DNA of 44,857 nucleotides from Limisphaerales bacterium (GTDB taxonomy: Bacteria; Verrucomicrobiota; Verrucomicrobiia; Limisphaerales; SIBE01), in the NCBI GenBank assembly GCA_044225505.1, contig JBGAIN010000052.1, positions 1-44,857 of the forward strand. Direction: 5' to 3'. Both the position numbers and the translations under genes were made by a program. Shown here in pieces: positions 203-23,593 of the stretch. The notes under the pieces are model-generated. The model saw nothing but the letters and a program-made list of their open reading frames with translations. It was not told the origin of the DNA and made no database searches. The number at the start of each line of letters is the position of its first letter. The first letter of the stretch is position 1.

Positions 203-1501
203 TTGAAAACCATTATATCCGCGACGCGGCTCATTCACGCCGCCTTGTGTTCAACGACGCAACGTTTTATGGACGCTTGTCAGCGGCTTGGCGTTGGTCG
301 CGACGATATCCCGTTTGCACGCTGCCGAATGGCCGATCGTCGAGCCGGAACAAGCCGGTCTTTCGACCTCTAAACTGGCGGAGGTGGATCGGTATATGGA
401 GCGTGCCATTGCCCAACAGAAAATGGCTGGAGGAATTGTCATGGTGTCGCACGGAGGGAAGATTGGATGCTTCCGCAGTTACGGGCAGATGGATCGCGAA
501 GCGGGCAAAGTGATGCAGCGCGATACCATATTCCGCATCTACTCCATGAGTAAGGCGATCACGACGGCGGCTGCCTTAACGCTCTATGAAGCCGAGAAAC
601 TGGATCTTAAAGACCCGGTCTCCAAATACATTCCGAGTTTCGCCAATTTACAGGTGGCGGCGCTGGAAGGATTGCGCATGCCCGTTCGGGAAATGACGGT
701 CCGGGACCTGATGCTGCATACCGCCGGCTTGTCTTATGGGTCTGGGCCAGACGCGGTGAAGGAAGGATATACGCGCTTGAAGCCGCTGGAATCGACCAAC
801 CTTACAGAAATGATGGAGAAGCTTGCCCAGATCCCTCTGGCGTTTGATCCGGGCTCAGACTGGCTCTATTCGGTTGCCACGGATGTCCTCGGGCGCGTGA
901 TCGAAGTCGCAAGCGGCACGCCGCTCGACAAGTTCCTGCAACAAACCATCTTTGAGCCGCTCGATATGCCCGACACGGCCTTCAGCGTCCCTCCCGAGAA
1001 GCTCGCGCGATTTGCGGCCAATTACAGTCGCTCCACGAACGGTCTGAAAGTCATCGATGCACCCGTAGACTCCAAGTTCGCCAAACAGGTGACGCTGTTC
1101 TCGGGTGGGGGTGGGCTGGTGAGTACGGCTCGGGATTATATGCGATTCTTGAGAATGATCGAAGAAGGGGGAACGTTGGACGGACTCAGATTCTTCGGCG
1201 CGGGACGGTCAACTTGATGAGAAACAATCAGCTACCCGCGAAAGCGTTTCCGATCTATTTCGGAAATGAAGTCCGCTACGGCACAGGGTTTGGGCTTGGG
1301 TTTTGCGTCCGCACGGCGAACACAGACTGGGATCCAGCAGGGCATGTGGGCGAGTATGGCTGGGGTGGGGCCGCTTCGACGCATTATTGGGGTGGAAGTC
1401 CGGCAGATCGATTGATTGTGGTGACGCTGGAACAGATCATGCCGTATCAGTGGGACACGGAATTCGGGCTCAAGCGGGTCATTTATGATGCGCTCCGATG
1501 A
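203..1501 (+). CDS. Secreted serine hydrolase, beta-lactamase class C/EstB family; split by apparent frameshift(s)
   Basis: ORF 288-1217 has SxxK (IYSMSK), LMLHTAGL and WLYSVATD motifs. ORF 1214-1501 supplies the C-terminal YGWGGAAST. Adding one A at ~1190 joins them (GLRILRRGTVNLMRNNQL). An in-frame signal peptide lies upstream of 288; removing one A from the A-run at 206-209 gives a TTG start at 203. Confidence 0.85.
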
Positions 1502-1771
1502 GCCCACGGGGATGCGCGTCCCGAGGCGCAGTTTTCAGCGAGGCGGTGCTTCTGACCTGTTCATCTTTATCATTCTGGTTGTTTCAAGTAAACGGGCCTG
1601 GTTCAGCCCTGTGTCAGGAATCCGTGCGAAATACGGCTGAGGGGTGCATCTCGACAGCACACCTTTAGTTGGCGCGCGGATTCTTGAGTCCGCCGGACGG
1701 CGTCCGATGTACAGCAGCTCGAATCCTTCGCGATCGCGGTCGTGCCTGTGACATTCCTGCGGGATAAATCC

Positions 1772-2069
1772 TAATGCCATCCGGTACTGCTTCCCTGGCG
1801 CCCCGATGGGGCAACTTCGAGAATAGCTCGGCGTTTTAACGCCGAGGGCGAATGGCAAGGCGACCAAGTCCCGACGGACGGCCGAGGACGTGGCATTGAA
1901 CGGAAGAACCGAGATAAAGGGATCACAAGGTCGAACCCAAACGCCCTCTTCCTCGCCGCCCACGTTCTCCGGGGCTTGGGCCCTCTCACTGGAGCACCCG
2001 GCGCTAAAGCGACCGGGCTTCTCTCATTCTGTCCCTTCCGGGACTGAATAGAATTACCGAATGGCATTA
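1772..2069. mobile_element. Non-autonomous MITE-like element with IS4-type ends
   Basis: 15-bp terminal inverted repeats TAATGCCATCCGGTA (1772-1786) and TACCGAATGGCATTA (2055-2069), 14/15 match. Flanked by exact 10-bp direct repeats GGATAAATCC (1762-1771, 2070-2079). No transposase ORF. Confidence 0.8.
1800..2044. repeat. Inverted pair of bipartite REP-like palindromes inside the MITE
   Basis: GCCCC-GAT-GGGGC (1800-1812) plus CTCGGCGTT-TT-AACGCCGAG (1827-1846). Mirrored by CCCGGCGCTAAAGCGACCGGG (1997-2017) plus GTCCC-TTCC-GGGAC (2031-2044). Confidence 0.6.
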
Positions 2070-2440
2070 GGATAAATCCCGCGATCCTGGGGGTACTGTC
2101 AAGATACGCCCACGGTTGAGACCAAACGCGACTCAAATGCACGATCTTTCAGAGATCAAGGATTCTAAAATCGGACAAGAGGCTAGTTGACAACGATCGG
2201 AGTTACGTCAGCTGGGTGAGACTTCCTCCTGGTGCCGGGATTGACAGCGCCGGGGCGGGAGGTGCTTTTCGCCAGTGCATAAAAGGCAACCTGCTGGCTA
2301 AATTCCCACAGTTTTCCCAGAGACAACTGGCCAAGATCGTTCCGCTGCCTATTCCGAACACACTCGAGAGCCGCAGCGAGAGACGCTGGCGGCGGATCCA
2401 AACGGGCACGATGAGATTAGTCCGCGTTGACGGCGCTTGA

Positions 2441-8077: not shown

Positions 8078-9157
8078 ATGATCCGCTTGAAAGATGTCGC
8101 TGCACGAGCCGGCGTGTCGTTAATGACCGTTTCCAAGGTTCTGCGCGATGCTCCAGACGTTTCCCAGGCCACAAAGGCTCGGATTCGTCGCTTGGCGCAA
8201 GAGATGGGCTATGTCCCGGACGCTCTGGCACGCGGGTTACGCACCCGGCAAACGCGATTGCTCGGCCTGGTTGTCCCGGGCATCGAACATTCCTGGGTGA
8301 GTGAGGCCGTCAGCGTCATGCAGGACCGGGTCCATGAGCTCGGCTTTGACCTGCTCCTGGCACAAACGGACGAGAATGTGCAGCGGGAGGAGATCTCGAT
8401 TCGCCGGTTATTATCGCGTCATGTGGACGGGATTTTCCTTTTTCCGGTCTATCGGCTAGCTCCTGTCTCTGCCATTTATCAGGAGCTGGAAAGGTCGCGC
8501 ACGCCCACGGTCTTGCTCGGGCATCGCGCCCCGTTCTGTGCGACTTTTCCCGCGGTGGAAACGGACGATTTGTCGGCAAGCTATCGCGTGACGCAGCACC
8601 TGCTCAAGCTGGGGCATCGGCGCATTGCTTTTGTGACTGGGCCGTCTTCTGCACCGTGGGCGCAAGAACGTTTTGAAGGCTACCGACGCGCTTTGCGCGA
8701 TTCCCAGATCGGGCTTGAGGACCGCCTCGTCTTTACGGGCGGAACGACGCTGGCGGATGGCGAAAAGGCCGGGACGCAATTGCTGGGTGAATTGACGGGG
8801 GCGACGGCGATTCAAGTCGTTTCGGACCTGGTCGCGGTCGGTATCGCGCGCGCGATTACTCAGAATGGGCTTCGCATTCCCGATGACATTGCGTTAGCCG
8901 GTTTCGGCAATCATCCCTTGGGCGAGCACGGCCGAGTCCCACTAACGAGCGTACAACTCCCTCGCCAGGAGATCGGGTGGGCCGCTGTGGACGTCATGCA
9001 ACGTCTGTGGCGTGGCGAAATTCCCGAAACCCAGCGGCTCCTCGGGGAGCTGGTGATCCGTGCCAGCACAGCGCGGCCCGCACCACACGAAGAGCATGAG
9101 GCACTGGTTGGGCCAGCGCCTGTTCCCACGTTGGATTCAGAAGACGACCTTCAGTAA
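8078..9157 (+). CDS. LacI family transcriptional regulator
   Basis: N-terminal HTH LKDVAARAGVSLMTVSKVL followed by a sugar-binding domain (GHRRIAFV, ERFEGY, IPDDIALAGF). Confidence 0.95.
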   Translation: MIRLKDVAARAGVSLMTVSKVLRDAPDVSQATKARIRRLAQEMGYVPDALARGLRTRQTRLLGLVVPGIEHSWVSEAVSVMQDRVHELGFDLLLAQTDENVQREEISIRRLLSRHVDGIFLFPVYRLAPVSAIYQELERSRTPTVLLGHRAPFCATFPAVETDDLSASYRVTQHLLKLGHRRIAFVTGPSSAPWAQERFEGYRRALRDSQIGLEDRLVFTGGTTLADGEKAGTQLLGELTGATAIQVVSDLVAVGIARAITQNGLRIPDDIALAGFGNHPLGEHGRVPLTSVQLPRQEIGWAAVDVMQRLWRGEIPETQRLLGELVIRASTARPAPHEEHEALVGPAPVPTLDSEDDLQ

Positions 9158-12040
<2,883 letters not shown>

Positions 12041-14316: not shown

Positions 14317-14452
14317 GAGGTTCCAATGTTGAGGCTCAGCCTATCAGAACCGGTTGGACATCCGCTGTCCATGGCTCCGCGTTTGTTTCAAGCGCCCGCT
14401 TTGCCCCCTGGACCGTGCGTCGCGTCGCGCGCGTTCGTTACCCGCGACCCTC

Positions 14453-16102
14453 TCAGAAGGTGCGCGCTCGATAGAACCGGTTCGTAAACTGGGTGATGTT
14501 AGGATCGAGGTATTCGACGACGCCATTGGTGGTCGTAACGAATCCTAGCGAAGTCCAGGTTCTAAGGTCGGAGCTGGCTTCCAAAGCGTAATTGGCACTG
14601 GAGTCTCCCGTAACCCGCAGCACCGGCTTGCCCGCGTTCGGACGGTTCATCTGTAAACTCGGCCGTGAACCTGGCGGGGTAGTGGAGGCAGGTTTGCTGG
14701 CGACCACTCGGAACTCGTCGAAAACCATGAATTCGTCGCCCGGGAGCGTGCCATCGCGGAGCTGCCATTGTGCATCGATGCTCTCCAGGGAGAGCGTCAG
14801 GTTGGTTGTTGTGATCGGCTGGTTTGTTGCCACAACACGGGAGTCAAGCGTCGCGTACCAGCGGTTGGCCGCGAAATTCATACTCAGTGTGAATCGATAC
14901 GGCACCGCGTTGGTGTAGGTAATACCGCTGTCTTGATAGTCGCTATCGCCAATCAGGTAGTAAACCGGGTGATCCCCGTCGCCCGCGGGAAACTCAAACG
15001 AGAGCAATCGCTTGCCGTCGCTATTGAAGAAGGCCCAATCAAACCAACCGCTCCGATTCGTGGTGGACGCGTGCACTGCCATATCCACCGAGAATGTCAG
15101 ATTCGATAGCCCCCGGTCGCCAGGGCGATAGTTCACCGGATAACCTACAGCATGGAAATCGCCACTTTCCGTTGGGGCCTTGAATCCCAAGAAAGCGGTT
15201 TGCAGCTGCCCATCAAAAAAGTTACTAACGAACCCATCTCCGCCATCCCCCGATCCAAGCCAGCCATTTTGTCCGACGAGCTTCTGGTCGAACTGGAATC
15301 CTTCAGATGACTCAAAACTAGTTGAATAAAGGACCATCTCCGCGACCGTGGGAAGTGGCTCAGCGGAGAGATGAAACTCGTCAAAGACCATAAACTCATT
15401 GCCAGGCGCATGACCGTCAAACAAAGCCCACTGGGCGTCGATATTACCCAGAGTCAGGCGATTCGTGCTGGTCGTGATCGGTTGGTTGGTCGCCAGGGGC
15501 TTGGAGTCCAGCGTTGCGCTCCATAAATTGGAGGCAAAATCCATGCGCACGGTCAGCGTGTAGGCCAGCGCATTGGTGAAGGTTTGGCCGGTGTTCTGAT
15601 AATCGCCCGTGCCGAGCTTATAAAAGACCGACTGAGCACCGCTCCCGCTGGGGAATTCCAAGGAGAAAAGGAGTTTGCCGTCGGCATTAAACACCGCCCA
15701 ATCGAACCAACCTTGATGATTGGTAGTCGAGGCGTAGACCGCCATTACGGTGGAAAACGTCACCAGGGGCATTCCCGACGCCGAAGGATCAAAGTTCACG
15801 GAGTGCCCTACAGCGTGGAAATCTCCCGCACTGACTGGCGGACGAAAGCCAATAAAAGCATTTTGCACCTGGTTCGCGAAAAAGTTCGTTACAATTCCGT
15901 CCCCGCCATTTCCCGCGCCTAACCAGCCATTCTGTCCGACCAAGTCGATGCCTGTCTTGTAGCCCTCACTGGCTTCAAAGCTGGTCGAGAAAAGATTGGT
16001 TGCCGCGGACGTGGCGAGTGCGCTGGCATAGAATATCGTGGCGATCACCAAGAGCGGAAAACGGACTTGCCAAGGCTGGACGCGGCTCAGGTTCTGTTCC
16101 AT
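14453..16102 (-). CDS. Secreted protein with two tandem ~221-aa beta-sandwich repeats and a conserved C-terminal DLxxW...RFYR domain
   Basis: Signal peptide after MEQN (16102). Repeats begin LFSTSFEASEG (15994) and LYSTSFESSEG (15331), a 663-nt period. A P/T linker precedes the terminal domain. Confidence 0.8.
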   Translation of the reverse strand: MEQNLSRVQPWQVRFPLLVIATIFYASALATSAATNLFSTSFEASEGYKTGIDLVGQNGWLGAGNGGDGIVTNFFANQVQNAFIGFRPPVSAGDFHAVGHSVNFDPSASGMPLVTFSTVMAVYASTTNHQGWFDWAVFNADGKLLFSLEFPSGSGAQSVFYKLGTGDYQNTGQTFTNALAYTLTVRMDFASNLWSATLDSKPLATNQPITTSTNRLTLGNIDAQWALFDGHAPGNEFMVFDEFHLSAEPLPTVAEMVLYSTSFESSEGFQFDQKLVGQNGWLGSGDGGDGFVSNFFDGQLQTAFLGFKAPTESGDFHAVGYPVNYRPGDRGLSNLTFSVDMAVHASTTNRSGWFDWAFFNSDGKRLLSFEFPAGDGDHPVYYLIGDSDYQDSGITYTNAVPYRFTLSMNFAANRWYATLDSRVVATNQPITTTNLTLSLESIDAQWQLRDGTLPGDEFMVFDEFRVVASKPASTTPPGSRPSLQMNRPNAGKPVLRVTGDSSANYALEASSDLRTWTSLGFVTTTNGVVEYLDPNITQFTNRFYRARTF

Positions 16103-16178
16103 GGATCCGGAATTTAGCAGCGATTCGCCAAGGTGCCTAGTCCTGAACCTCGCGTTCCCTGGTTGGAGCGAGTGGTCA

Positions 16179-16207
16179 TTGTAAATTCTCGGTGACGCTT
16201 CTAGAAT
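16179..16207 (+). promoter_or_regulatory. sigma70-type promoter of the beta-helix/GEVED gene
   Basis: TTGTAA-17 nt-TAGAAT, ending 13 nt before the TTG at 16221. Confidence 0.55.
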
Positions 16208-16220
16208 ACGAGCGTCGACC

Positions 16221-18113
16221 TTGAAGACGATCTCGACGCTATCTTGGATATGGATTGCCTTTATGCTGCTCCGCGGCACGCCCCGCGAGGTGCTGGGAGG
16301 GGTGTACTCTTTAGATTTTTCGACGTTCAATCCTCAGGCAGATTCCGTGCTGGAGCCGGGCAAAGTCTATGACGGCAGCACGGCGGATCGAGTGGACGAC
16401 TTTCTGCGCAAGGTTCCAGAGAACAGCACCATCCACCTTGGGAGAAACACCTTCGAGACTCGAGGCGTCTGGGATATTTGGCTGGGAGACTTGACCAAAG
16501 GGTTTCGTCTGAAATCCGGATGGACCATCCTCGGGGCAGGGACCAACAGCGCGGGAGGAACGGTCTTGCGCTTAATCGACGTGCCGGTGGACAAAAGTGG
16601 GCTTTACAACAATAACTCGGTCCTTTCGACGGGAGGCGCTGGCCTCTACAGCGAGAACCGGCCCGTGCACCTCCGTCCAAATGTGAATCACGTCGCCATC
16701 CGAGATTTGCAGGTGGACTGCAATTATCCGACCTTAGCGAAGCAGAAGGGGACCACCGCGTTGCAGTTGTCGGGGATTCAAATTCTGGGCAATTCGGACA
16801 TTACAATCAGCAATGTGCTCGTGCGCAATGCGGTTTCGAAGAAGCTCGATCACCGAGGGCGGCAGTTTGAATGCTTTCAGGTCTACGTTTATAATAAGTG
16901 GTCGACGAATCTCCCTGGCTCGTACTTTTTAGATCGGATCGCGATCGCGGAGTACCAAGGCGGGTACACGTCAGCGATCTGCGTCAATGGCCACGCTTCG
17001 GGCTCGATTCGGAATTGCACGGTGGACTTAGCCCCAGACGGTACTCAGCAATACGGGCTGAACTTCGCCGCTGGGATTGAGCATTTCACAATCGCGAACA
17101 ATCGCGTCAGTAACGTGAGCCGCGGCATCAATAATGATACGGGACCGGTCTGCAAGGACGTGCGAATCGTGGGGAACCGATTGCTGCAATGTGCGACCGG
17201 CATGCTGTTGGCCAATAGCGTCAGCAACATCATCGCGGCCAATTCGATCGAGTTGAACGGGACCGGGACGGGGATTGCCATCCGGTGTCATCCAACGATG
17301 GAGCATGTCAAATCGAGCGCTTGCACGGTGATTAGCAATAGTCTTTCCGGGCCAGGCGGGGAGGGCATCAGCTTGTGTTATGCCAACGAGTTTACACCTT
17401 TGGATACTTCCCTCTATTGGTCGACCAACAATATCGTGCAGAACAACGTGCTCTCGCCCGCGCTGGAGAACAAAATTCCGCCTGCCTCCGTGGCTCAGAA
17501 CCTCGTTCGACCGGGCAATCGACGGCACGTCGAAAACTATGCCGCCTGTAATCGCGCGAATCAGTTGGTCAATCTCGCTGCTGTTGGATTCCCGTCGGAT
17601 ATTGGGATCGGGGCGGCTTGTGCTTATCCTGAAGCGAGGGCCGTTGACACCGGCTACGGTTATATAGCGCGGGTCAAATTGAGCGGGACGGCGTTGGATA
17701 TGAAATCCGACTGGGGAAACGGTTCGGGTTACACCGACTTCACCACGGGTTACCCGTTAGGAGAAGGACGGAACAAATTACGTCGAACCTATTACGTGCA
17801 ATCCGCGGATGTGCATCGTGGGCAGCGCTACAAAATGACCATCGATGCGGGCGGATTTAAGTATCCCATGCCTGCGAGTTTTCGCGTTTACATTGACTGG
17901 AACCACAATGGGAGTTTTGAAGAGCCCGATGATCTGGTTCTGTCCGAGGCTAGCCGAAGTTCAGTGAATCGCAATCTCACGATTCCCGAGGGTGCTCCAG
18001 TAGGTTCTACTCGGATGCGAGTCATATTGGCGTGCGGCCGAATTCCTGGCCCGGCGGATTCCAAAACGTTTTGGGGCGAGGTGGAAGACTACACGCTAAA
18101 CGTCGTTCCCTGA
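16221..18113 (+). CDS. Secreted right-handed parallel beta-helix protein with C-terminal GEVED domain
   Basis: Signal peptide; Asn/Ile-rich beta-helix repeats (TIANNRV, RIVGNRL, IIAANSI, IVQNNVL); YIDWNHNGSFE, GSTRMRV and terminal GEVEDYTLNV. Confidence 0.85.
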   Translation: MKTISTLSWIWIAFMLLRGTPREVLGGVYSLDFSTFNPQADSVLEPGKVYDGSTADRVDDFLRKVPENSTIHLGRNTFETRGVWDIWLGDLTKGFRLKSGWTILGAGTNSAGGTVLRLIDVPVDKSGLYNNNSVLSTGGAGLYSENRPVHLRPNVNHVAIRDLQVDCNYPTLAKQKGTTALQLSGIQILGNSDITISNVLVRNAVSKKLDHRGRQFECFQVYVYNKWSTNLPGSYFLDRIAIAEYQGGYTSAICVNGHASGSIRNCTVDLAPDGTQQYGLNFAAGIEHFTIANNRVSNVSRGINNDTGPVCKDVRIVGNRLLQCATGMLLANSVSNIIAANSIELNGTGTGIAIRCHPTMEHVKSSACTVISNSLSGPGGEGISLCYANEFTPLDTSLYWSTNNIVQNNVLSPALENKIPPASVAQNLVRPGNRRHVENYAACNRANQLVNLAAVGFPSDIGIGAACAYPEARAVDTGYGYIARVKLSGTALDMKSDWGNGSGYTDFTTGYPLGEGRNKLRRTYYVQSADVHRGQRYKMTIDAGGFKYPMPASFRVYIDWNHNGSFEEPDDLVLSEASRSSVNRNLTIPEGAPVGSTRMRVILACGRIPGPADSKTFWGEVEDYTLNVVP

Positions 18114-18185: not shown

Positions 18186-18974
18186 TTACGGGAGGAGCAG
18201 CGCACGGTAAAACCGCTGCGGTAATGTTAAGGCATTGGTATCCGACACTCGCATCGAGCCATTGGCTGACAAAGGAAGTCCCAGCACCGTCCAAGTGCGC
18301 AGGTCCGGGGATGTTTGCACTGAGTAACTCCGCCCTGGATTACCGGTAAGTTCCAACTGCATCCCGACGCTTCGATCAAAGAGCACCGAGGTGAAGTGAG
18401 CGTCAATTCCGCTGGCGGAGACCGTCAACACTCCGTTGAGCGTCGTGACCGGAGCAATCTTCTTGAAAGTACCGTCCGACAAGACCACATCGCTCAGCTG
18501 GATCGTTGCTGCACCCTGGGGCGCGGTGGCGGCGATGGTGATCGGAACATTGACGAGCACACCGGTGGGCAAAGGTTCGCTCCGCTTCGAGTAAACGAGG
18601 ACTCGTCGGACGCCTGGTGTGGTCTCGCGTGAATCCACAATCACATCAGAGAGAGGGGACTCCAAGACGGCGCCATCCGAGAAAAGGTTTCCCGGGGTGT
18701 AGGAAACGTCAAACTGCGCGCCAACGACAGTCGAATTGCTCGTCAGGCGGATCGGCACGAGAACAGTGCTCCCTGCAACGCCAGATCCTGTCCCGACAGC
18801 GAGCTCTGTGGCGGCAAACCCAGCCTGCGGCGTCAAAGTGCTCAGGAGCAGACCGAGTATTCCCAGTTTTATCAGCGGTCCCCAAAGACGGGCTCGCGAT
18901 GGCGGGAACGCTGCGTCTGCAGCGGTGCTCCCAGCGTCCCAGCAGCCAAAGACGGGAAAGATTGTCAGACTCAT
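18186..18974 (-). CDS. Single cohesin-domain secreted protein with conserved C-terminal DLxxW...RFYR domain
   Basis: Hydrophobic signal (aa ~30-55). Cohesin-like pattern GSTVLVPIRL..VVGAQFDVSY..G..RVLVYS..G.LV.V.I.I...A..G...IQL..V.LSD..NGVLTV. The ATG overlaps the upstream stop (ATGA, 18971-18974). Confidence 0.8.
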   Translation of the reverse strand: MSLTIFPVFGCWDAGSTAADAAFPPSRARLWGPLIKLGILGLLLSTLTPQAGFAATELAVGTGSGVAGSTVLVPIRLTSNSTVVGAQFDVSYTPGNLFSDGAVLESPLSDVIVDSRETTPGVRRVLVYSKRSEPLPTGVLVNVPITIAATAPQGAATIQLSDVVLSDGTFKKIAPVTTLNGVLTVSASGIDAHFTSVLFDRSVGMQLELTGNPGRSYSVQTSPDLRTWTVLGLPLSANGSMRVSDTNALTLPQRFYRALLLP

Positions 18975-21900
18975 GGTTCGCGCTTTGTTTCGATCTCGTA
19001 AGTTCCTACCTCGGACTCCCGGTCATCGCCGACCGTGAGCGTGTAGGTCCCTTTCTTAAACGTAAAGGTTCCAGGCTCCGAACAGCCCAGGCAACTTCGG
19101 AAAATCTGCGTCCCGGCGGCATCTTCCAATAACCAATCCGCAAACGACAAAGTTGTGGTAACAACGCGGAACGAAATCTTGTCTCCGTCTTGCGCTTCGA
19201 AGGTATAGACATCTTTGGATCCGGGCGTCTCAATTCGACCTGCCCCTGGTCCGGGAATATCCGGACCAACATTCTGTCCGATCGAAAGTGGAAATGTACT
19301 GAACGGCGGGATATCCCATAATTTGAATGAGTATGCTCCCGTGGTAAAGAAATCTCGATCGTCAACGACGATCGTGTAAGTTCCGCCGCGAGTCAGGGTG
19401 AAAGCGCCGGGCTCGAACGCATTGAAACCTTCGGAAAAAATGCGTTCGCCCGTCTGGTCTCGCAAGGTCCAGTTTTTGAAGTCAAACGGGTCGTACTCAC
19501 CTAACAACTGAAAATAGACCCGCTGTCCTGGAGTGGCCGTAAAGGTATAGATGTCCTGCACGCCTGGAGTTTCCACGAGGCCCGCGCCGGGGCCGGGAAC
19601 GTTATTCGTGATGGTGTCGCCCACCGCAATCGTGAACTGCTGCGAAGGTGGGACATCCCAGATCTTAAACTCGTACGTTCCGGTATCGGGCGGGGTGGGG
19701 TCGAAGGAAAACTCCAGGCCGTTGCCGAGCTTCAAGAAGTAGGTTCCGCCCTTCTTGAACGTCAGCACGCCCGGGTTGAGGCAGCGGACGCAGTCGGACG
19801 TAATATAACCTTCTTCATTCTCCAGGCGCCATTGCAGAGGCGAGCTTGGGGACGGCTCTTTAAAGTCAAAGTACACCTGTTGATTCGATTGCACCGTGAA
19901 TCGATAGACATCAATCGCGCCGGGTATCTCCAGATTGCCTGCACCTGGCGCGGGAAAACCGTTGGTCACCGCATCCCCCAAGTGGAGCGAGAATTCTTGC
20001 GGCACAACATCCCAGAACTTGAACTGATAGCTCCCAGTCTGATTGGTCCCTCCTTCGCCCACCGTTAGCGTGTATAATCCGCCTTCCTCCAGTTGAAAAC
20101 GGCCAACGTTGCCGTCCGCCAGTTTACTGGCAAAATACAATTCGCCCTCGGCACTTTCCAATTTCCATTCCACGCAGCATGGGATCGTATTGCTGATCAA
20201 GCTGAGATAGACGATCTGTCCTGGCTGCGCGGTGAACGTATAAAAGTCCTTCGCGCCCGGGTATTCGATGACGCCAGCTCCAGCGGTCGGACTACCGTTC
20301 CCTACGACATCACCAATTTGAATTGGATACTGGTCCGGGACGAACTGGCGACCGTCCGGAACTCCATCGCCGTCACTATCGACCGCGTCCGGACTGGTTC
20401 CCAAAATCAGTTCAGGCAGATCTGGCAATCCATCCTTGTCACTGTCTGCGGAATGATCTTCATGGAGGAGGACGGCAGGCAGATTAAGCGTCAAGCCTGG
20501 GTCAGGGGTCGTGAAATCGGAACTGCCAAGCATCATCGTTCGGGCTTGCAGGATGAACTGCCGGTAATGGGTATTGGGAGCGAGAATGAGATTATGGAAC
20601 GCTTGGCCGTTGCTGTCTGCTTTACCTCGTTGCTCCACCTTCCCGGTATCCAGGTTGAGAAGCGCAAAGTAATGCAGGCCAACTTGCGGGGACGGATCGG
20701 GTTCCTCAAAACTGAGTGGGTCGCTCCCTTCCAAGACCTCAAGCCCGTCCGACACACCATCGCCATCGGTATCCGCACGGCTGGGATCGGTGCCGAGCAT
20801 TAGCTCTTGACGATTGGTAAGTCCGTCGCCGTCGGCATCTTTTTCCGCGTCGGTTGGATCGTTGGCGTTTAACCCGTGCGCCCGTTCCCATTCGTCCGGC
20901 ATACCATCTCCATCCAGATCTCGAGGAGACCGCACGGTCAACGTGACTGTCGTTGCCAGGTCGAAGTCCTCCATCTCGATGTCTTCCAGATACCAAACGC
21001 GGATATCGACTCTGCCCGGCTTCAAGCCATCGACGCTGCCGTCCGGGTTGACACGGACGACTTGCCCGTTGCTCGCGCGGTACTGAATGCCCGAGGCGTG
21101 GGTCAAGTCCGCTTTGCTGCCATCGGAGTAAATGCCAGTGACTTTGATCTGGGCTTTTCCACCCGGGTCGATGACCGCGGGATTGACCTCAGCGACGATT
21201 TCGACGAGGGTCCGCAACACTTTCGGGCGTGGCCCTGGGGGTGGACAGGCAGGGAAACCTTTGGCGCCGGCGTATTTGAGAACGCGCTGCGCCAACTCGT
21301 CGTTGTACTTCTGTCCTTCGTGATAAGCGCCGTCGTCGTGTTTAGCGCTGTGGTTGATGTTGAACTTGATCTGTTCTTCCCAATAGTTCGCCTGCATTTT
21401 GCGAAAGGCGTCGTTGGCGTTTTCCTGCAGGATGTCCGCCGCGTCTCCTGCAGACACGGTGCAAGGGATGCAGAGCGACTCCATCGCGAACTCGGCTAAG
21501 CGCCAATGCTTGCGCACCAATTCGGGAATGTCGACGTCCCGGTGATAGTACTCATGCGCTCGGGTTGCTGCCAGCGACTGCCACTTCCCGCGTCCGAGCT
21601 TGGCGTATTCCTGGAGATAACGAAGCATCTCGCAATAGTTACCCGAAGTGACGTTGCCGCCGTCGACCGGGTTTGGCTCCTGGCTCCCCAGAATCGAAAT
21701 GTTCACGAATCCATCGACGTCCATGGTACTCGCCTGGAAACGACGGCACTTCGACGTTGGGTCGTAACAGGTGCTACCGTCGTAATCAAAATCTCTCACC
21801 ACTGTATGCGGTTCCACCTTCGGATTGTTTTCCTCGGTCCAGTGAAAGCCGAGGATCGCGGGCGCATCGGCGCGGCAGGCATCCGACGGTGGATCTCCTT

Positions 21901-23509
21901 TGCAGACCCCACCTTGGCAGCGGTCATTCGTCGTGCATGGATCTCCATCATCGCACGGTTGACCGTTCTGCTCGCAAGGCCTTTTCTTTTTGGGTAGTTT
22001 CACTTTGCTCCCCTTGCCCGTGACGCCTGGAGTACTGCCGTGCCAGCCCGGTTGCCGGATTCCCACGCCGGGATCGCTCTCGATGAATTTCCCGTCCGCG
22101 CTCACCGTCATCTGTCCTTGCAACTCCCATTCCCCCGTGTCGTGGTTGAAACTCCATAGCCCGCTCTTCGCCCCGGGAGGAAGCGGTTTGCCCGTTGCTG
22201 GCAACGGAAGGTTAGGAAAGCGTGCGGGAACTGGACGATCGAAGTTGCTCGGTCCGTCTGTCTGGACGGTGATGACAACAGGAAACGACAAGCCGTCCGG
22301 GAGCGGACTGGGCAAGCGGTCCGGCGCGACCGGGGCAATTCCCACTTTGCCACCGCGCGTGCCATCATTGCTGAACAACGAGTTCGCAGGGACATCAATG
22401 GCGACGCCTTCCAACCCTGGGTTCGCTTGCAGGACTGTCGAAGAAAACGTCACACTGGTATCGTTGGTCTGACTGACCGATTGCAGCGTGCCGGGAGCAA
22501 TTACCGGGAGATAAATGAGCCCGGTGCCTCCCGCCAGATTCGTGCGGATGCCTGGGACTGTCGTCCATTGTTTGCCAACGACAGGGTAGTAAGGCTCTTT
22601 GGGCCACTGGCTTTCCGTGGCCGTTCGTCCATCGATATGGACAAAGAACTGTCCCGCGGGCGCCGGCTCGAGTTTGAAATCGCCGTTCGCATCCGTCGTC
22701 GTGAACAACGTTTCTTCCATTCCATCCACGGTGATGCGGACGCCTTGGAGCGGATGTTCATTCCGATTGGTTCCGCCTGCAGAGATCGGCTCCGAGGCCA
22801 ACACTCGGCCCAGAACCGCTGTCCCCGGCGCCGCGGCCGAATTCAGAGTGGTGAAATTGACTCGAGCGGTCCCCCCGGGGAGGCCGTTTCCGTCCGGATC
22901 GATCGAGCGGCCCAAGTCATCCCTTAAGTCGGTGCCGCTCAAGGTGACTTCAACCTCCATGTTGGACGGCAGATTCTCCAAATAGAAGAGGGTCACAGAT
23001 TTGCGGTCACTGGAAAGTTCTCGGCGAGCGAGCAAACGTCGACCCCCCGCTTCAGCATAGAGGTTATCAGCGCTGATCACGGATCCTACCGCCAGAGGCT
23101 GGGTCAAACGGAAGATCGTCTCTCGCGTTAGCGCGACGTCCGACTCAAGGTCTGCGGGAGACGTCTCGAGCACTTTGGCGAAAGGGAAATCCGGGAGCGC
23201 CTCATCTCCGAGGACCCTATTGGCGAGCAGAACGGCATCGGCTTCATTGACCACGCCGTCCTGGTTGAGGTCGGCCGCCAAAACCAGATCGGGCGGCAAG
23301 GGCTGCCGTCCGTTCAAATGAGCGATCAGGCGAGCCAGATCAATGACCGTCGCGCTGCCATCTTCGTCGAGGTCACCCAGTCGCCCCGGCCCCGCTGCTT
23401 CGAGTCGCAGCAGCATAAACCCCATGTGGAAGAGGCACGAGTAAAGCGTGCAAACCGCTAGAGCCCGCGCCAGGCGCCCGTGCGATCGAAACCGAGTCTG
23501 AAACATCAT
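18971..23509 (-). CDS. 1512-aa secreted modular protein: dockerin, Ig-like, carboxypeptidase-regulatory-like, Cys-rich, HExxH module, Ig-like, Ca-binding DxDxDG repeats, 4x PPC-like repeats
   Basis: Duplicated dockerin loops GDLDEDGSATVID and ADLNQDGVVNEAD (23377-23207); CDDGDPCTTNDRC; HEYYH (21556-21542); DLDGDGMPDEWE-type repeats; four 110-119 aa repeats containing GAGxxExPGxxDxYxF. Confidence 0.85.
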   Translation of the reverse strand: MMFQTRFRSHGRLARALAVCTLYSCLFHMGFMLLRLEAAGPGRLGDLDEDGSATVIDLARLIAHLNGRQPLPPDLVLAADLNQDGVVNEADAVLLANRVLGDEALPDFPFAKVLETSPADLESDVALTRETIFRLTQPLAVGSVISADNLYAEAGGRRLLARRELSSDRKSVTLFYLENLPSNMEVEVTLSGTDLRDDLGRSIDPDGNGLPGGTARVNFTTLNSAAAPGTAVLGRVLASEPISAGGTNRNEHPLQGVRITVDGMEETLFTTTDANGDFKLEPAPAGQFFVHIDGRTATESQWPKEPYYPVVGKQWTTVPGIRTNLAGGTGLIYLPVIAPGTLQSVSQTNDTSVTFSSTVLQANPGLEGVAIDVPANSLFSNDGTRGGKVGIAPVAPDRLPSPLPDGLSFPVVITVQTDGPSNFDRPVPARFPNLPLPATGKPLPPGAKSGLWSFNHDTGEWELQGQMTVSADGKFIESDPGVGIRQPGWHGSTPGVTGKGSKVKLPKKKRPCEQNGQPCDDGDPCTTNDRCQGGVCKGDPPSDACRADAPAILGFHWTEENNPKVEPHTVVRDFDYDGSTCYDPTSKCRRFQASTMDVDGFVNISILGSQEPNPVDGGNVTSGNYCEMLRYLQEYAKLGRGKWQSLAATRAHEYYHRDVDIPELVRKHWRLAEFAMESLCIPCTVSAGDAADILQENANDAFRKMQANYWEEQIKFNINHSAKHDDGAYHEGQKYNDELAQRVLKYAGAKGFPACPPPGPRPKVLRTLVEIVAEVNPAVIDPGGKAQIKVTGIYSDGSKADLTHASGIQYRASNGQVVRVNPDGSVDGLKPGRVDIRVWYLEDIEMEDFDLATTVTLTVRSPRDLDGDGMPDEWERAHGLNANDPTDAEKDADGDGLTNRQELMLGTDPSRADTDGDGVSDGLEVLEGSDPLSFEEPDPSPQVGLHYFALLNLDTGKVEQRGKADSNGQAFHNLILAPNTHYRQFILQARTMMLGSSDFTTPDPGLTLNLPAVLLHEDHSADSDKDGLPDLPELILGTSPDAVDSDGDGVPDGRQFVPDQYPIQIGDVVGNGSPTAGAGVIEYPGAKDFYTFTAQPGQIVYLSLISNTIPCCVEWKLESAEGELYFASKLADGNVGRFQLEEGGLYTLTVGEGGTNQTGSYQFKFWDVVPQEFSLHLGDAVTNGFPAPGAGNLEIPGAIDVYRFTVQSNQQVYFDFKEPSPSSPLQWRLENEEGYITSDCVRCLNPGVLTFKKGGTYFLKLGNGLEFSFDPTPPDTGTYEFKIWDVPPSQQFTIAVGDTITNNVPGPGAGLVETPGVQDIYTFTATPGQRVYFQLLGEYDPFDFKNWTLRDQTGERIFSEGFNAFEPGAFTLTRGGTYTIVVDDRDFFTTGAYSFKLWDIPPFSTFPLSIGQNVGPDIPGPGAGRIETPGSKDVYTFEAQDGDKISFRVVTTTLSFADWLLEDAAGTQIFRSCLGCSEPGTFTFKKGTYTLTVGDDRESEVGTYEIETKREP

Positions 23510-23563: not shown

Positions 23564-23593
23564 AGAATAGGGAACGACAGATTGATGTCAATC
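23564..23593 (-). promoter_or_regulatory. sigma70-type promoter of the dockerin-cohesin operon, overlapped by an inverted repeat
   Basis: TTGACA (23591-23586)-16 nt-TATTCT (23569-23564). The inverted repeat GATTGA-TG-TCAATC (23580-23593) covers the -35 box. Confidence 0.55.

Follow-up and report, generated by a model that had tools for sequence, protein, structure and literature searches.

The window analysed here, a 44,857-nucleotide (nt) stretch from a Limisphaerales bacterium (GenBank assembly GCA_044225505.1, contig JBGAIN010000052.1), is the whole of contig C121 in a 9.04-Mb genome of 342 contigs. Two overlapping genes lie on its minus strand: gene 1 encodes a large protein (the cargo) with a dockerin near its N-terminus, and gene 2 encodes a small protein (the adaptor) made of a putative signal peptide, one cohesin and a C-terminal domain, which we denote FYR. 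We propose that the two proteins probably form a tethering pair, in which the adaptor cohesin would bind the cargo dockerin and lend the cargo an FYR domain non-covalently, by which the cargo would be kept at the cell surface or sorted to it. Three elements of this system are new: a conserved family of minimal cohesin-FYR adaptors, the linkage of these adaptors exclusively with the dockerin-type members of a single surface-protein family, and an alternation within that family between FYR in trans and FYR in cis. The features on which the argument draws, with protein positions in amino acids (aa), are as follows.

18971..23509, minus strand: gene 1, the cargo, 1512 aa, from the list of open reading frames (ORFs)
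18186..18974, minus strand: gene 2, the adaptor, 262 aa, from the ORF list
18971..18974, minus strand: ATGA overlap of stop and start, 4 nt; the junction reads ...GAA CCA TGA, with the ATG in the +1 register
23393..23509, minus strand: N-terminus of the cargo, aa 1-~39, read from the sequence as a putative signal peptide, with the 12-mer of highest hydrophobicity at aa 16-27
23210..23380, minus strand: Dockerin_1 of the cargo, aa 44-100, with two intact Ca loops, from Pfam and the family alignment
22010..23188, minus strand: conserved N-terminal module of the cargo, aa ~108-500, consisting of a Big_5-like part, a CarboxypepD_reg-like part and ~200 uncatalogued residues
18813..18974, minus strand: long N-terminal region of the adaptor with a putative signal peptide, aa 1-~54, ending ...AGFA/AT; Kyte-Doolittle hydropathy maximum at aa 34-45
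18423..18806, minus strand: Cohesin of the adaptor, aa 57-184, from Pfam, a PDB profile search and Foldseek
18189..18404, minus strand: FYR tail domain of the adaptor, aa ~191-262, ending ...RFYRALLLP, from the tail profile; six strands in the AlphaFold2 (AF2) model

The dockerin of gene 1 matched Dockerin_1 (PF00404) over the full length of the profile (positions 1-57 of 57) with an E-value (E) of 5.4e-11 and 42.9 bits, against a cut-off of 22.9 bits. Its Ca loops, DLDEDGSATVID and DLNQDGVVNEAD, both follow the EF-hand-like DxDxDGxxxxxD pattern, and both loops were intact in 17/17 aligned family dockerins (alignment A3). Positions 10/11 are VI in loop 1 and EA in loop 2; among the 17 family dockerins, position 10 was V, I or A in loop 1 and E, D, Q, S or G in loop 2. 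Symmetric Ser-Thr pairs are the basis of the dual binding mode in classical type I dockerins. The recognition residues of the gene 1 dockerin lack this internal symmetry, as do those of all 17 family dockerins, and a single binding mode is plausible from these residues.

Gene 2 matched Cohesin (PF00963) with E 3.4e-9 and 37.5 bits (39.3 bits in the genome scan), also above the Pfam cut-off (24.1 bits), and had no match in NCBIfam. A profile of the adaptor family (116 sequences, alignment A2) recovered 6kg8 (E 8.9e-14) and 1g1k and 2vn5 (both ~1e-10) from the PDB sequences. The AF2 model built on the same alignment had a pLDDT of 88.5 and a pTM of 0.70, with a helix at aa 32-45. Its top Foldseek matches were type I cohesins, led by 6kgc_A (E 1e-10, TM-score normalised to the target 0.80, root-mean-square deviation 2.7, 146 columns) and followed by dozens more cohesins. 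Further down came the single-cohesin anchors OlpA (3ul4_A) and OlpC (4dh2_C), 2jh2, the archaeal non-cellulosomal 2xdh, and 2w1n, a cohesin+FN3 construct of Clostridium perfringens GH84C. The model thus confirmed the predicted nine-stranded jelly-roll cohesin fold. Since a word-indexed protein search returned only two adaptor relatives, an exhaustive search was used, which found 1190 library proteins at E ≤ 1e-3 and 248 at E ≤ 1e-10; the top 150 relatives were mostly proteins of ~230 aa with the same order of signal, cohesin and tail.

The FYR domain is a ~70-aa beta-sandwich that ends in ...W...(F/Y)YR and closes otherwise unrelated exported proteins; in the adaptor model, aa 193-260 form six strands together with one short helix. 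It matched nothing in Pfam even at E 10, nor in NCBIfam at E 1, including Por_Secre_tail and TIGR04183. The nearest Atlas clusters were unnamed Verrucomicrobiota clusters (score 0.94), with an FN3-like lead at 0.76. No family for a surface-layer homology (SLH) or sortase-signal (LPXTG) anchor was matched in the adaptor in Pfam or NCBIfam. A single phmmer pass showed that FYR closes many ORFs of the window's genome; jackhmmer placed it in 224 ORFs, 183 of them with the domain within 10 aa of the stop, and a profile built from 186 strictly C-terminal copies raised these numbers to 252 and 208. The same C-terminal-only profile located FYR near the N-terminus of 29 ORFs. The domain is thus not confined to C-termini in this genome, which is a new observation. 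FYR tails were found in 38/41 related genomes and, at profile level, in 336/401 genomes of the order; one of the 401 genomes, G316, is unpublished, and none of our claims depends on it. FYR most likely keeps proteins at the cell surface or directs them there.

These searches bear on what a first-pass annotation had read from the letters of the window. It had described gene 1 as carrying a dockerin with unequal loops, no recognisable glycoside hydrolase domain and no C-terminal tail, and gene 2 as a signal, one cohesin and a C-terminal domain shared with other proteins. The dockerin and cohesin proved to be genuine Pfam matches, as given above, and the signal of gene 2 was again a putative one read from the sequence. 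No glycoside hydrolase family was matched in gene 1 by Pfam, the tail search confirmed that gene 1 lacks the tail, and the FYR domain of gene 2 recurred on a 625-aa ORF of the window (14453..16330, minus strand). The large cargo combines several kinds of domain and is probably a surface protein; it is not a carbohydrate-active enzyme.

The same annotation had proposed that the small protein is a dedicated adaptor of the large one, with the recurrence of dockerin-cargo and cohesin-tail gene pairs in Verrucomicrobiota genomes as a check. We surveyed this from both sides. For the cargo side, species-representative genomes were scanned with an alignment of the first ~500 aa of the cargo; 80 of 268 loci were kept and, together with the window, gave 81 loci. 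One profile each was built for module (aa 108-500), family dockerin, cohesin and tail, and the loci were sorted by these. A dockerin preceded the module in 17/81 loci and was absent from the other 64. Five of the 17 dockerin loci were cut by the contig end at the 3' side. All 12 complete ones had an adjacent cohesin-tail gene, which lay downstream on the same strand in 11 loci and directly upstream in the remaining one, L039 (cohesin E 7e-35, FYR tail E 4e-16). L039 had been considered as an exception to the pairing and was rejected as such when the genome search put its cohesin-FYR gene upstream. None of the 64 dockerin-less loci had a same-strand downstream cohesin ORF. Across all 81 loci and both strands, cohesin matches were confined to these 12 loci and one weak match in L091 (E 2.4e-5).

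The cohesin-side sample comprised 40 places from an order-wide search (E ≤ 2e-49), each match spanning cohesin and tail; G000, G009, G033 and G037, which had already been read, the partial G067 and G114, and also G171 and G199 were left out. At least 6.7 kb of upstream sequence was available for 25 of the 40 places, which were taken as assessable, and the other 15 had less than 4 kb. A family-type dockerin ORF lay upstream on the same strand in 22/25 assessable loci, five of the 22 being contigs already in the cargo-side sample. In the order as a whole, about 39/401 genomes had their best match at E ≤ 1e-45, where, among the matches listed, those covering both cohesin and tail in full are found. 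The pairing therefore recurs in Limisphaerales/Pedosphaerales-type genomes, and adjacency from the cargo side and from the cohesin side supports the idea of a dedicated adaptor.

The proteins paired in this way differ widely outside the module. Over its first ~500 aa, the cargo shares 55-64% identity with proteins of G009 and G033 that adjoin cohesin-tail genes, and the remainder of those proteins differs. This bears on the alternative that the adaptor is a general scaffoldin, whose cohesin serves several dockerin proteins of the genome and whose adjacency to the cargo is an accident of the operon. The numbers in the window's genome speak for it, with Pfam Dockerin_1 at 10 places (9 of them outside gene 1), several of which sit in giant ORFs of 6,815, 8,480 and 12,706 aa, and Pfam cohesins at only two. 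However, an accident would have to recur in the 12/12 and 22/25 loci, across many genera and widely different cargo bodies, and the family-specific dockerin profile gave just one further, weak match in the genome. We regard a general scaffoldin as very improbable.

In a tree of 78 modules (quick search), the dockerin type requires eight changes, and the well-supported branches force at least two. Because the module tree requires several such changes, the association of dockerin and cohesin, as read from this tree, is not a single inherited event.

Several loci met in the survey deserve separate mention. The cargo's closest relative, 73% identical to it in the module, is encoded in L023; there, the cohesin gene at 14392-15211 (plus strand) is split by frame shifts over two frames and represents a pseudogene or an assembly error. 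L091, from a metagenome-assembled genome (MAG) of Candidatus Poribacteria, has an ORF upstream of the module gene (514-2100, plus strand) with a Dockerin_1 match of 26.6 bits, a sub-threshold cohesin and a sub-threshold tail of the type IX secretion system (T9SS) type (FlgD_ig / Por_Secre_tail); this ORF may encode a counterpart of the adaptor that ends in another kind of tail. L048, from a MAG labelled Chloroflexota, encodes a protein just before the module (9143-10168, plus strand) with a sub-threshold Cohesin (aa 106-216) and Dockerin_1 (aa 287-337), and may hold plug and socket in cis. L014, L018 and L034 are MAGs of a 5-10 Mb Limisphaerales-type group deposited as Akkermansia muciniphila, which looks like a placeholder or mislabel.

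The dockerin-less paralogs of the cargo provide the second line of evidence. An FYR-like domain lies directly before the module, in the position of the dockerin, in 33/64 of them at E < 1e-3 and in 40/64 at E < 0.1, as detected with the profile from the 186 strictly C-terminal tails, which replaced one iterated over N-terminal copies. An hhalign comparison of C-terminal with N-terminal copies gave a probability of 99% (E 7e-18). Family cargos have no C-terminal tail and the adaptors have it; a C-terminal tail was considered for the dockerin-less paralogs as well and rejected (0/64), their tail-like domain being N-terminal. The window's genome shows the alternation within a single organism: among its 13 module ORFs (~10 genes), the dockerin occurs only in that of the window, and an N-terminal FYR-like domain occurs in seven. 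A tail-like domain in cis at the dockerin's place is what a tethering adaptor predicts, and the module family appears to need FYR, since paralogs hold an FYR-like domain covalently at that position. The cohesin-dockerin pair would then probably supply in trans the domain that the paralogs carry in cis. This alternation provides comparative evidence suggesting that the pair binds, and that FYR may have a function required by its passenger, more than that of a spacer.

It is also the alternation that bears on a rival explanation without specific binding, in which each module, cohesin-like or dockerin-like, acts on its own as a structural or Ca-binding domain and the genes are linked through shared regulation only. 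Dockerin-like and cohesin-like modules of obscure role are widespread outside cellulosomes, which counts for this explanation, as does the comparative-genomic nature of our case for binding. However, the strict co-occurrence of dockerin and cohesin gene, together with their joint absence from the paralogs with FYR in cis, would be hard to explain without an interaction, and we consider this explanation improbable.

Several observations weigh against a tethering pair. The genomes sampled are related and not independent, and three of the 25 assessable cohesin-side loci (L140, L141, L145) have no dockerin upstream. A profile from 16 tails detected none of the N-terminal FYR-like copies (0/64). 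These copies form a distinct subtype, to which adaptor tails score a mean of 17.9 bits, compared with 49-60 bits for C-terminal types, and the equivalence of N- and C-terminal FYR is one that we infer at the level of the family. Derivation of the adaptor tail from the N-terminal subtype was rejected, as 0/37 adaptor tails prefer that type. Neither a dockerin nor an FYR-like domain (E < 1e-3) was found in 31/64 dockerin-less paralogs, and the N-terminal regions of the 27 among these that were long enough to be sent to Pfam mostly gave no match. The 29 N-terminal occurrences mean that FYR is not strictly a C-terminal signal. Finally, the nine other dockerins and the other cohesin-bearing proteins of the genome leave room for cross-binding. 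The latter include two ORFs that are FYR-tailed as well, C94:15403-19137 (minus strand, 1245 aa) and C281:8414-11905 (minus strand, 1164 aa), the second with two cohesin-like domains.

Taken together, tethering would proceed as follows. Cargo and adaptor would both be exported by Sec, and the adaptor cohesin would bind, in a Ca-dependent manner, the dockerin that lies N-terminally in the mature cargo. Through the adaptor, the cargo would gain an FYR domain non-covalently, and FYR, present on some 250 exported proteins per genome, would hold or sort it at the cell surface. The pair would recreate in trans the cis layout of the paralogs, that is, signal, FYR-like domain and module.

A different route to the surface would be hitch-hiker export, in which FYR is an export signal for an outer-membrane translocon and the adaptor binds the cargo in the periplasm through cohesin and dockerin and carries it across the outer membrane. 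The putative Sec-type N-termini on both proteins would suit this route, and FYR ends 208 of its 252 carrier ORFs, much as a sorting tag would; in addition, the distant locus L091 joins a cohesin-like domain to a weak tail resembling the T9SS C-terminal domain. That domain (Por_Secre_tail) of Bacteroidota is a known parallel to FYR, being likewise a small beta-sandwich that ends hundreds of exported proteins per genome. However, FYR has no sequence match to it and also occurs at N-termini, where a position-dependent cleaved signal would not be expected, and the operon contains no translocon gene. Verrucomicrobiota are not known to have a T9SS. We therefore regard hitch-hiker export as unlikely. 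A bolder proposal goes further: FYR would address proteins to a surface-sorting or export route of Verrucomicrobiota that has yet to be described, and would need no more than physical attachment to its passenger. The lineage would for this reason have swapped a covalent N-terminal FYR, several times over, for a dockerin and a separately encoded cohesin-FYR tag carrier, which would join its passenger in the periplasm and bring it to the surface. We offer this as speculation with a slim chance of being correct; if true, nature would have assembled a split-tag, piggy-back secretion system from the parts of cellulosomes.

Returning to the tethering pair, its nearest counterparts are OlpA, OlpC and SdbA of Clostridium (Acetivibrio) thermocellum, which likewise combine one cohesin with a surface module and bind a dockerin partner. 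These anchoring scaffoldins carry SLH repeats. In contrast, the adaptor's candidate anchor is the uncatalogued FYR and its host is a diderm Verrucomicrobium; its partner is a single dedicated surface protein encoded in the operon, instead of cellulases or a scaffoldin, and the dockerin of that partner is N-terminal. By this analogy, the pair would work like the single-cohesin anchoring scaffoldins, but is not a member of their group because its anchor is different. Non-cellulosomal cohesin-dockerin modules are already known. Those in the GH84 NagJ/NagH complexes of C. perfringens and the cohesin of Archaeoglobus fulgidus resemble the present pair in lying outside plant cell-wall degradation, and the adaptor model matches 2w1n, 2jh2 and 2xdh. 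The pair differs from them in its minimal adaptor of signal, cohesin and tail, in its conserved operon partner, and in alternating with a covalent version in paralogs.

What is understood of cohesin-dockerin pairs comes, to our knowledge, almost wholly from Gram-positive cellulosomes. The present work describes a minimal, dedicated pair, unlinked to polysaccharide breakdown and maintained in many genera of diderm Verrucomicrobiota. Such a pair could serve as a direct experimental handle on FYR and, where proteins are to be displayed on Gram-negative hosts, as a small plug-and-socket device provided by nature. In the portions of the literature available to us on cohesins and dockerins in Verrucomicrobia, non-cellulosomal cohesins and Pedosphaera dockerins, we found no description of a dockerin-cargo/cohesin-FYR pair; the accessible part of one report mentions only a cohesin-containing species of the Planctomycetes-Verrucomicrobia-Chlamydiae (PVC) group (PMC11557425).

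The two ORFs of the window are separate genes. Their junction was free of indels in contigs from runs of three studies, one of which may be the window's own source, and two separate ORFs recur in related loci, every adaptor having its own hydrophobic N-terminus. The ORF split is therefore genuine and not an assembly artefact, so that the concern raised in the first-pass annotation, that the two might be one frameshifted gene, was not borne out. A separately assembled 262-aa protein (P0001) is 99% identical to the adaptor. In gene 2, a start-codon scan gave no second ATG, GTG or TTG before the hydrophobic core. The adaptor does start inside the stop of the cargo gene, as first read. The ATGA overlap is shared with L023 and L051 (-4 nt in all three), and the adaptor start lies at -35, +27, +52 and +54 nt relative to the cargo stop in four other loci. 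For gene 1, the public gene call (P0152, 1484 aa) begins 28 aa downstream of the start of the 1512-aa ORF; the longer form yields a basic-then-hydrophobic N-terminus, as in relatives.

The two genes had also been described as a two-gene operon with its own promoter. The first part applies to the window; many relatives have one or two extra genes between cargo and adaptor. As to the promoter, one candidate was located upstream of gene 1.

23564..23591, minus strand: promoter-like hexamers TTGACA-16-TATTCT, a consensus match only (10/12 positions)

The region held two promoter-like matches compared with 1.7 expected from shuffles, and because this count is not above that of the shuffles, the candidate is treated as a consensus match only. 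A 256-nt contig of a sludge metatranscriptome library (window positions 18769-19024) matched perfectly and bridges the gene junction; the same run gave no cover elsewhere on the stretch. This contig was not counted for co-transcription, because RNA libraries may hold DNA and contigs do not show a single transcript. The stretch was also present in activated-sludge and bioreactor metagenomes of several studies.

Beyond the dockerin and the module, whose Big_5 and CarboxypepD_reg matches in Pfam are weak, the cargo contains the following regions.

21185..21994, minus strand: Cys-rich stretch and uncatalogued HExxHRD domain, aa 506-775; motif HEYYH at aa 652-656, nt 21542-21556
20996..21175, minus strand: Big_2-like Ig domain, aa 779-838; Pfam E 6.4e-4, below the cut-off
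20705..20947, minus strand: bacterial TSP3 (Ca-binding) repeats, aa ~855-935; Pfam E 5.6e-15, in three stretches
18980..20332, minus strand: four tandem PPC-like repeats of ~115 aa each, aa ~1060-1510, with a PG..D.Y.F motif

The Big_2-like region showed sequence matches to the Ig domains of LigA/LigB and to teneurin-like proteins. The PG..D.Y.F motif of the four repeats occurs at aa 1084, 1196, 1315 and 1429; PPC (PF04151) itself scored 15.4 bits (E 0.036) against a cut-off of 25.9 bits. The cargo has orthologs of similar length (~1500 aa; P0153-P0158) that also combine a dockerin with TSP3 repeats and are 50-69% identical to it in the aa 506-775 region. The HExxHRD motif of this region is invariant in 17/17 family members, and five Cys are invariant as well; the domain is also present in dockerin-less family members. 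Its AF2 model (pLDDT 92.4) has a three-stranded sheet and three long helices, with HExxH inside the helix at 141-171 of the model. The region had no Pfam match even at E 10 and its PDB sequence search was uninformative; Foldseek of the model against the PDB gave 0 matches at E ≤ 1e-3, and the wide VIA search gave a best Z of 4.6, with generic helical matches only. The Atlas returned DUF922 at 0.77, which is a lead only. These searches assigned no fold, zincin or other, to the domain. From the motif, our guess is that it is metal-dependent, perhaps a peptidase.

Two neighbours lie beyond the adaptor gene. The 625-aa FYR-tailed protein mentioned above (14453-16330, minus strand) has no family match, and the ORF at 16221-18113 (plus strand) encodes a 630-aa NosD-like beta-helix protein with a C-terminal GEVED domain. 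As listed, the two ORFs overlap by 110 nt at their starts, which makes it probable that at least one of these starts is wrong.

In many relatives, a ~390-aa Gly-rich exported protein, sometimes with another ORF, is encoded between cargo and adaptor; the window locus does not have it. Because this protein is also found after dockerin-less module genes, we count it as part of the module family, separate from the tether. It follows both dockerin-type and FYR-type module genes, has no Pfam match, and shows 47-55% identity among its copies, which include the following.

L014:15534-16694, L015:7007-8215, L019:5487-6716 and L079:7679-8818: copies in other loci
C123:36705-37937, C339:6682-7938 and C198:25887-27137: three copies in the window's genome

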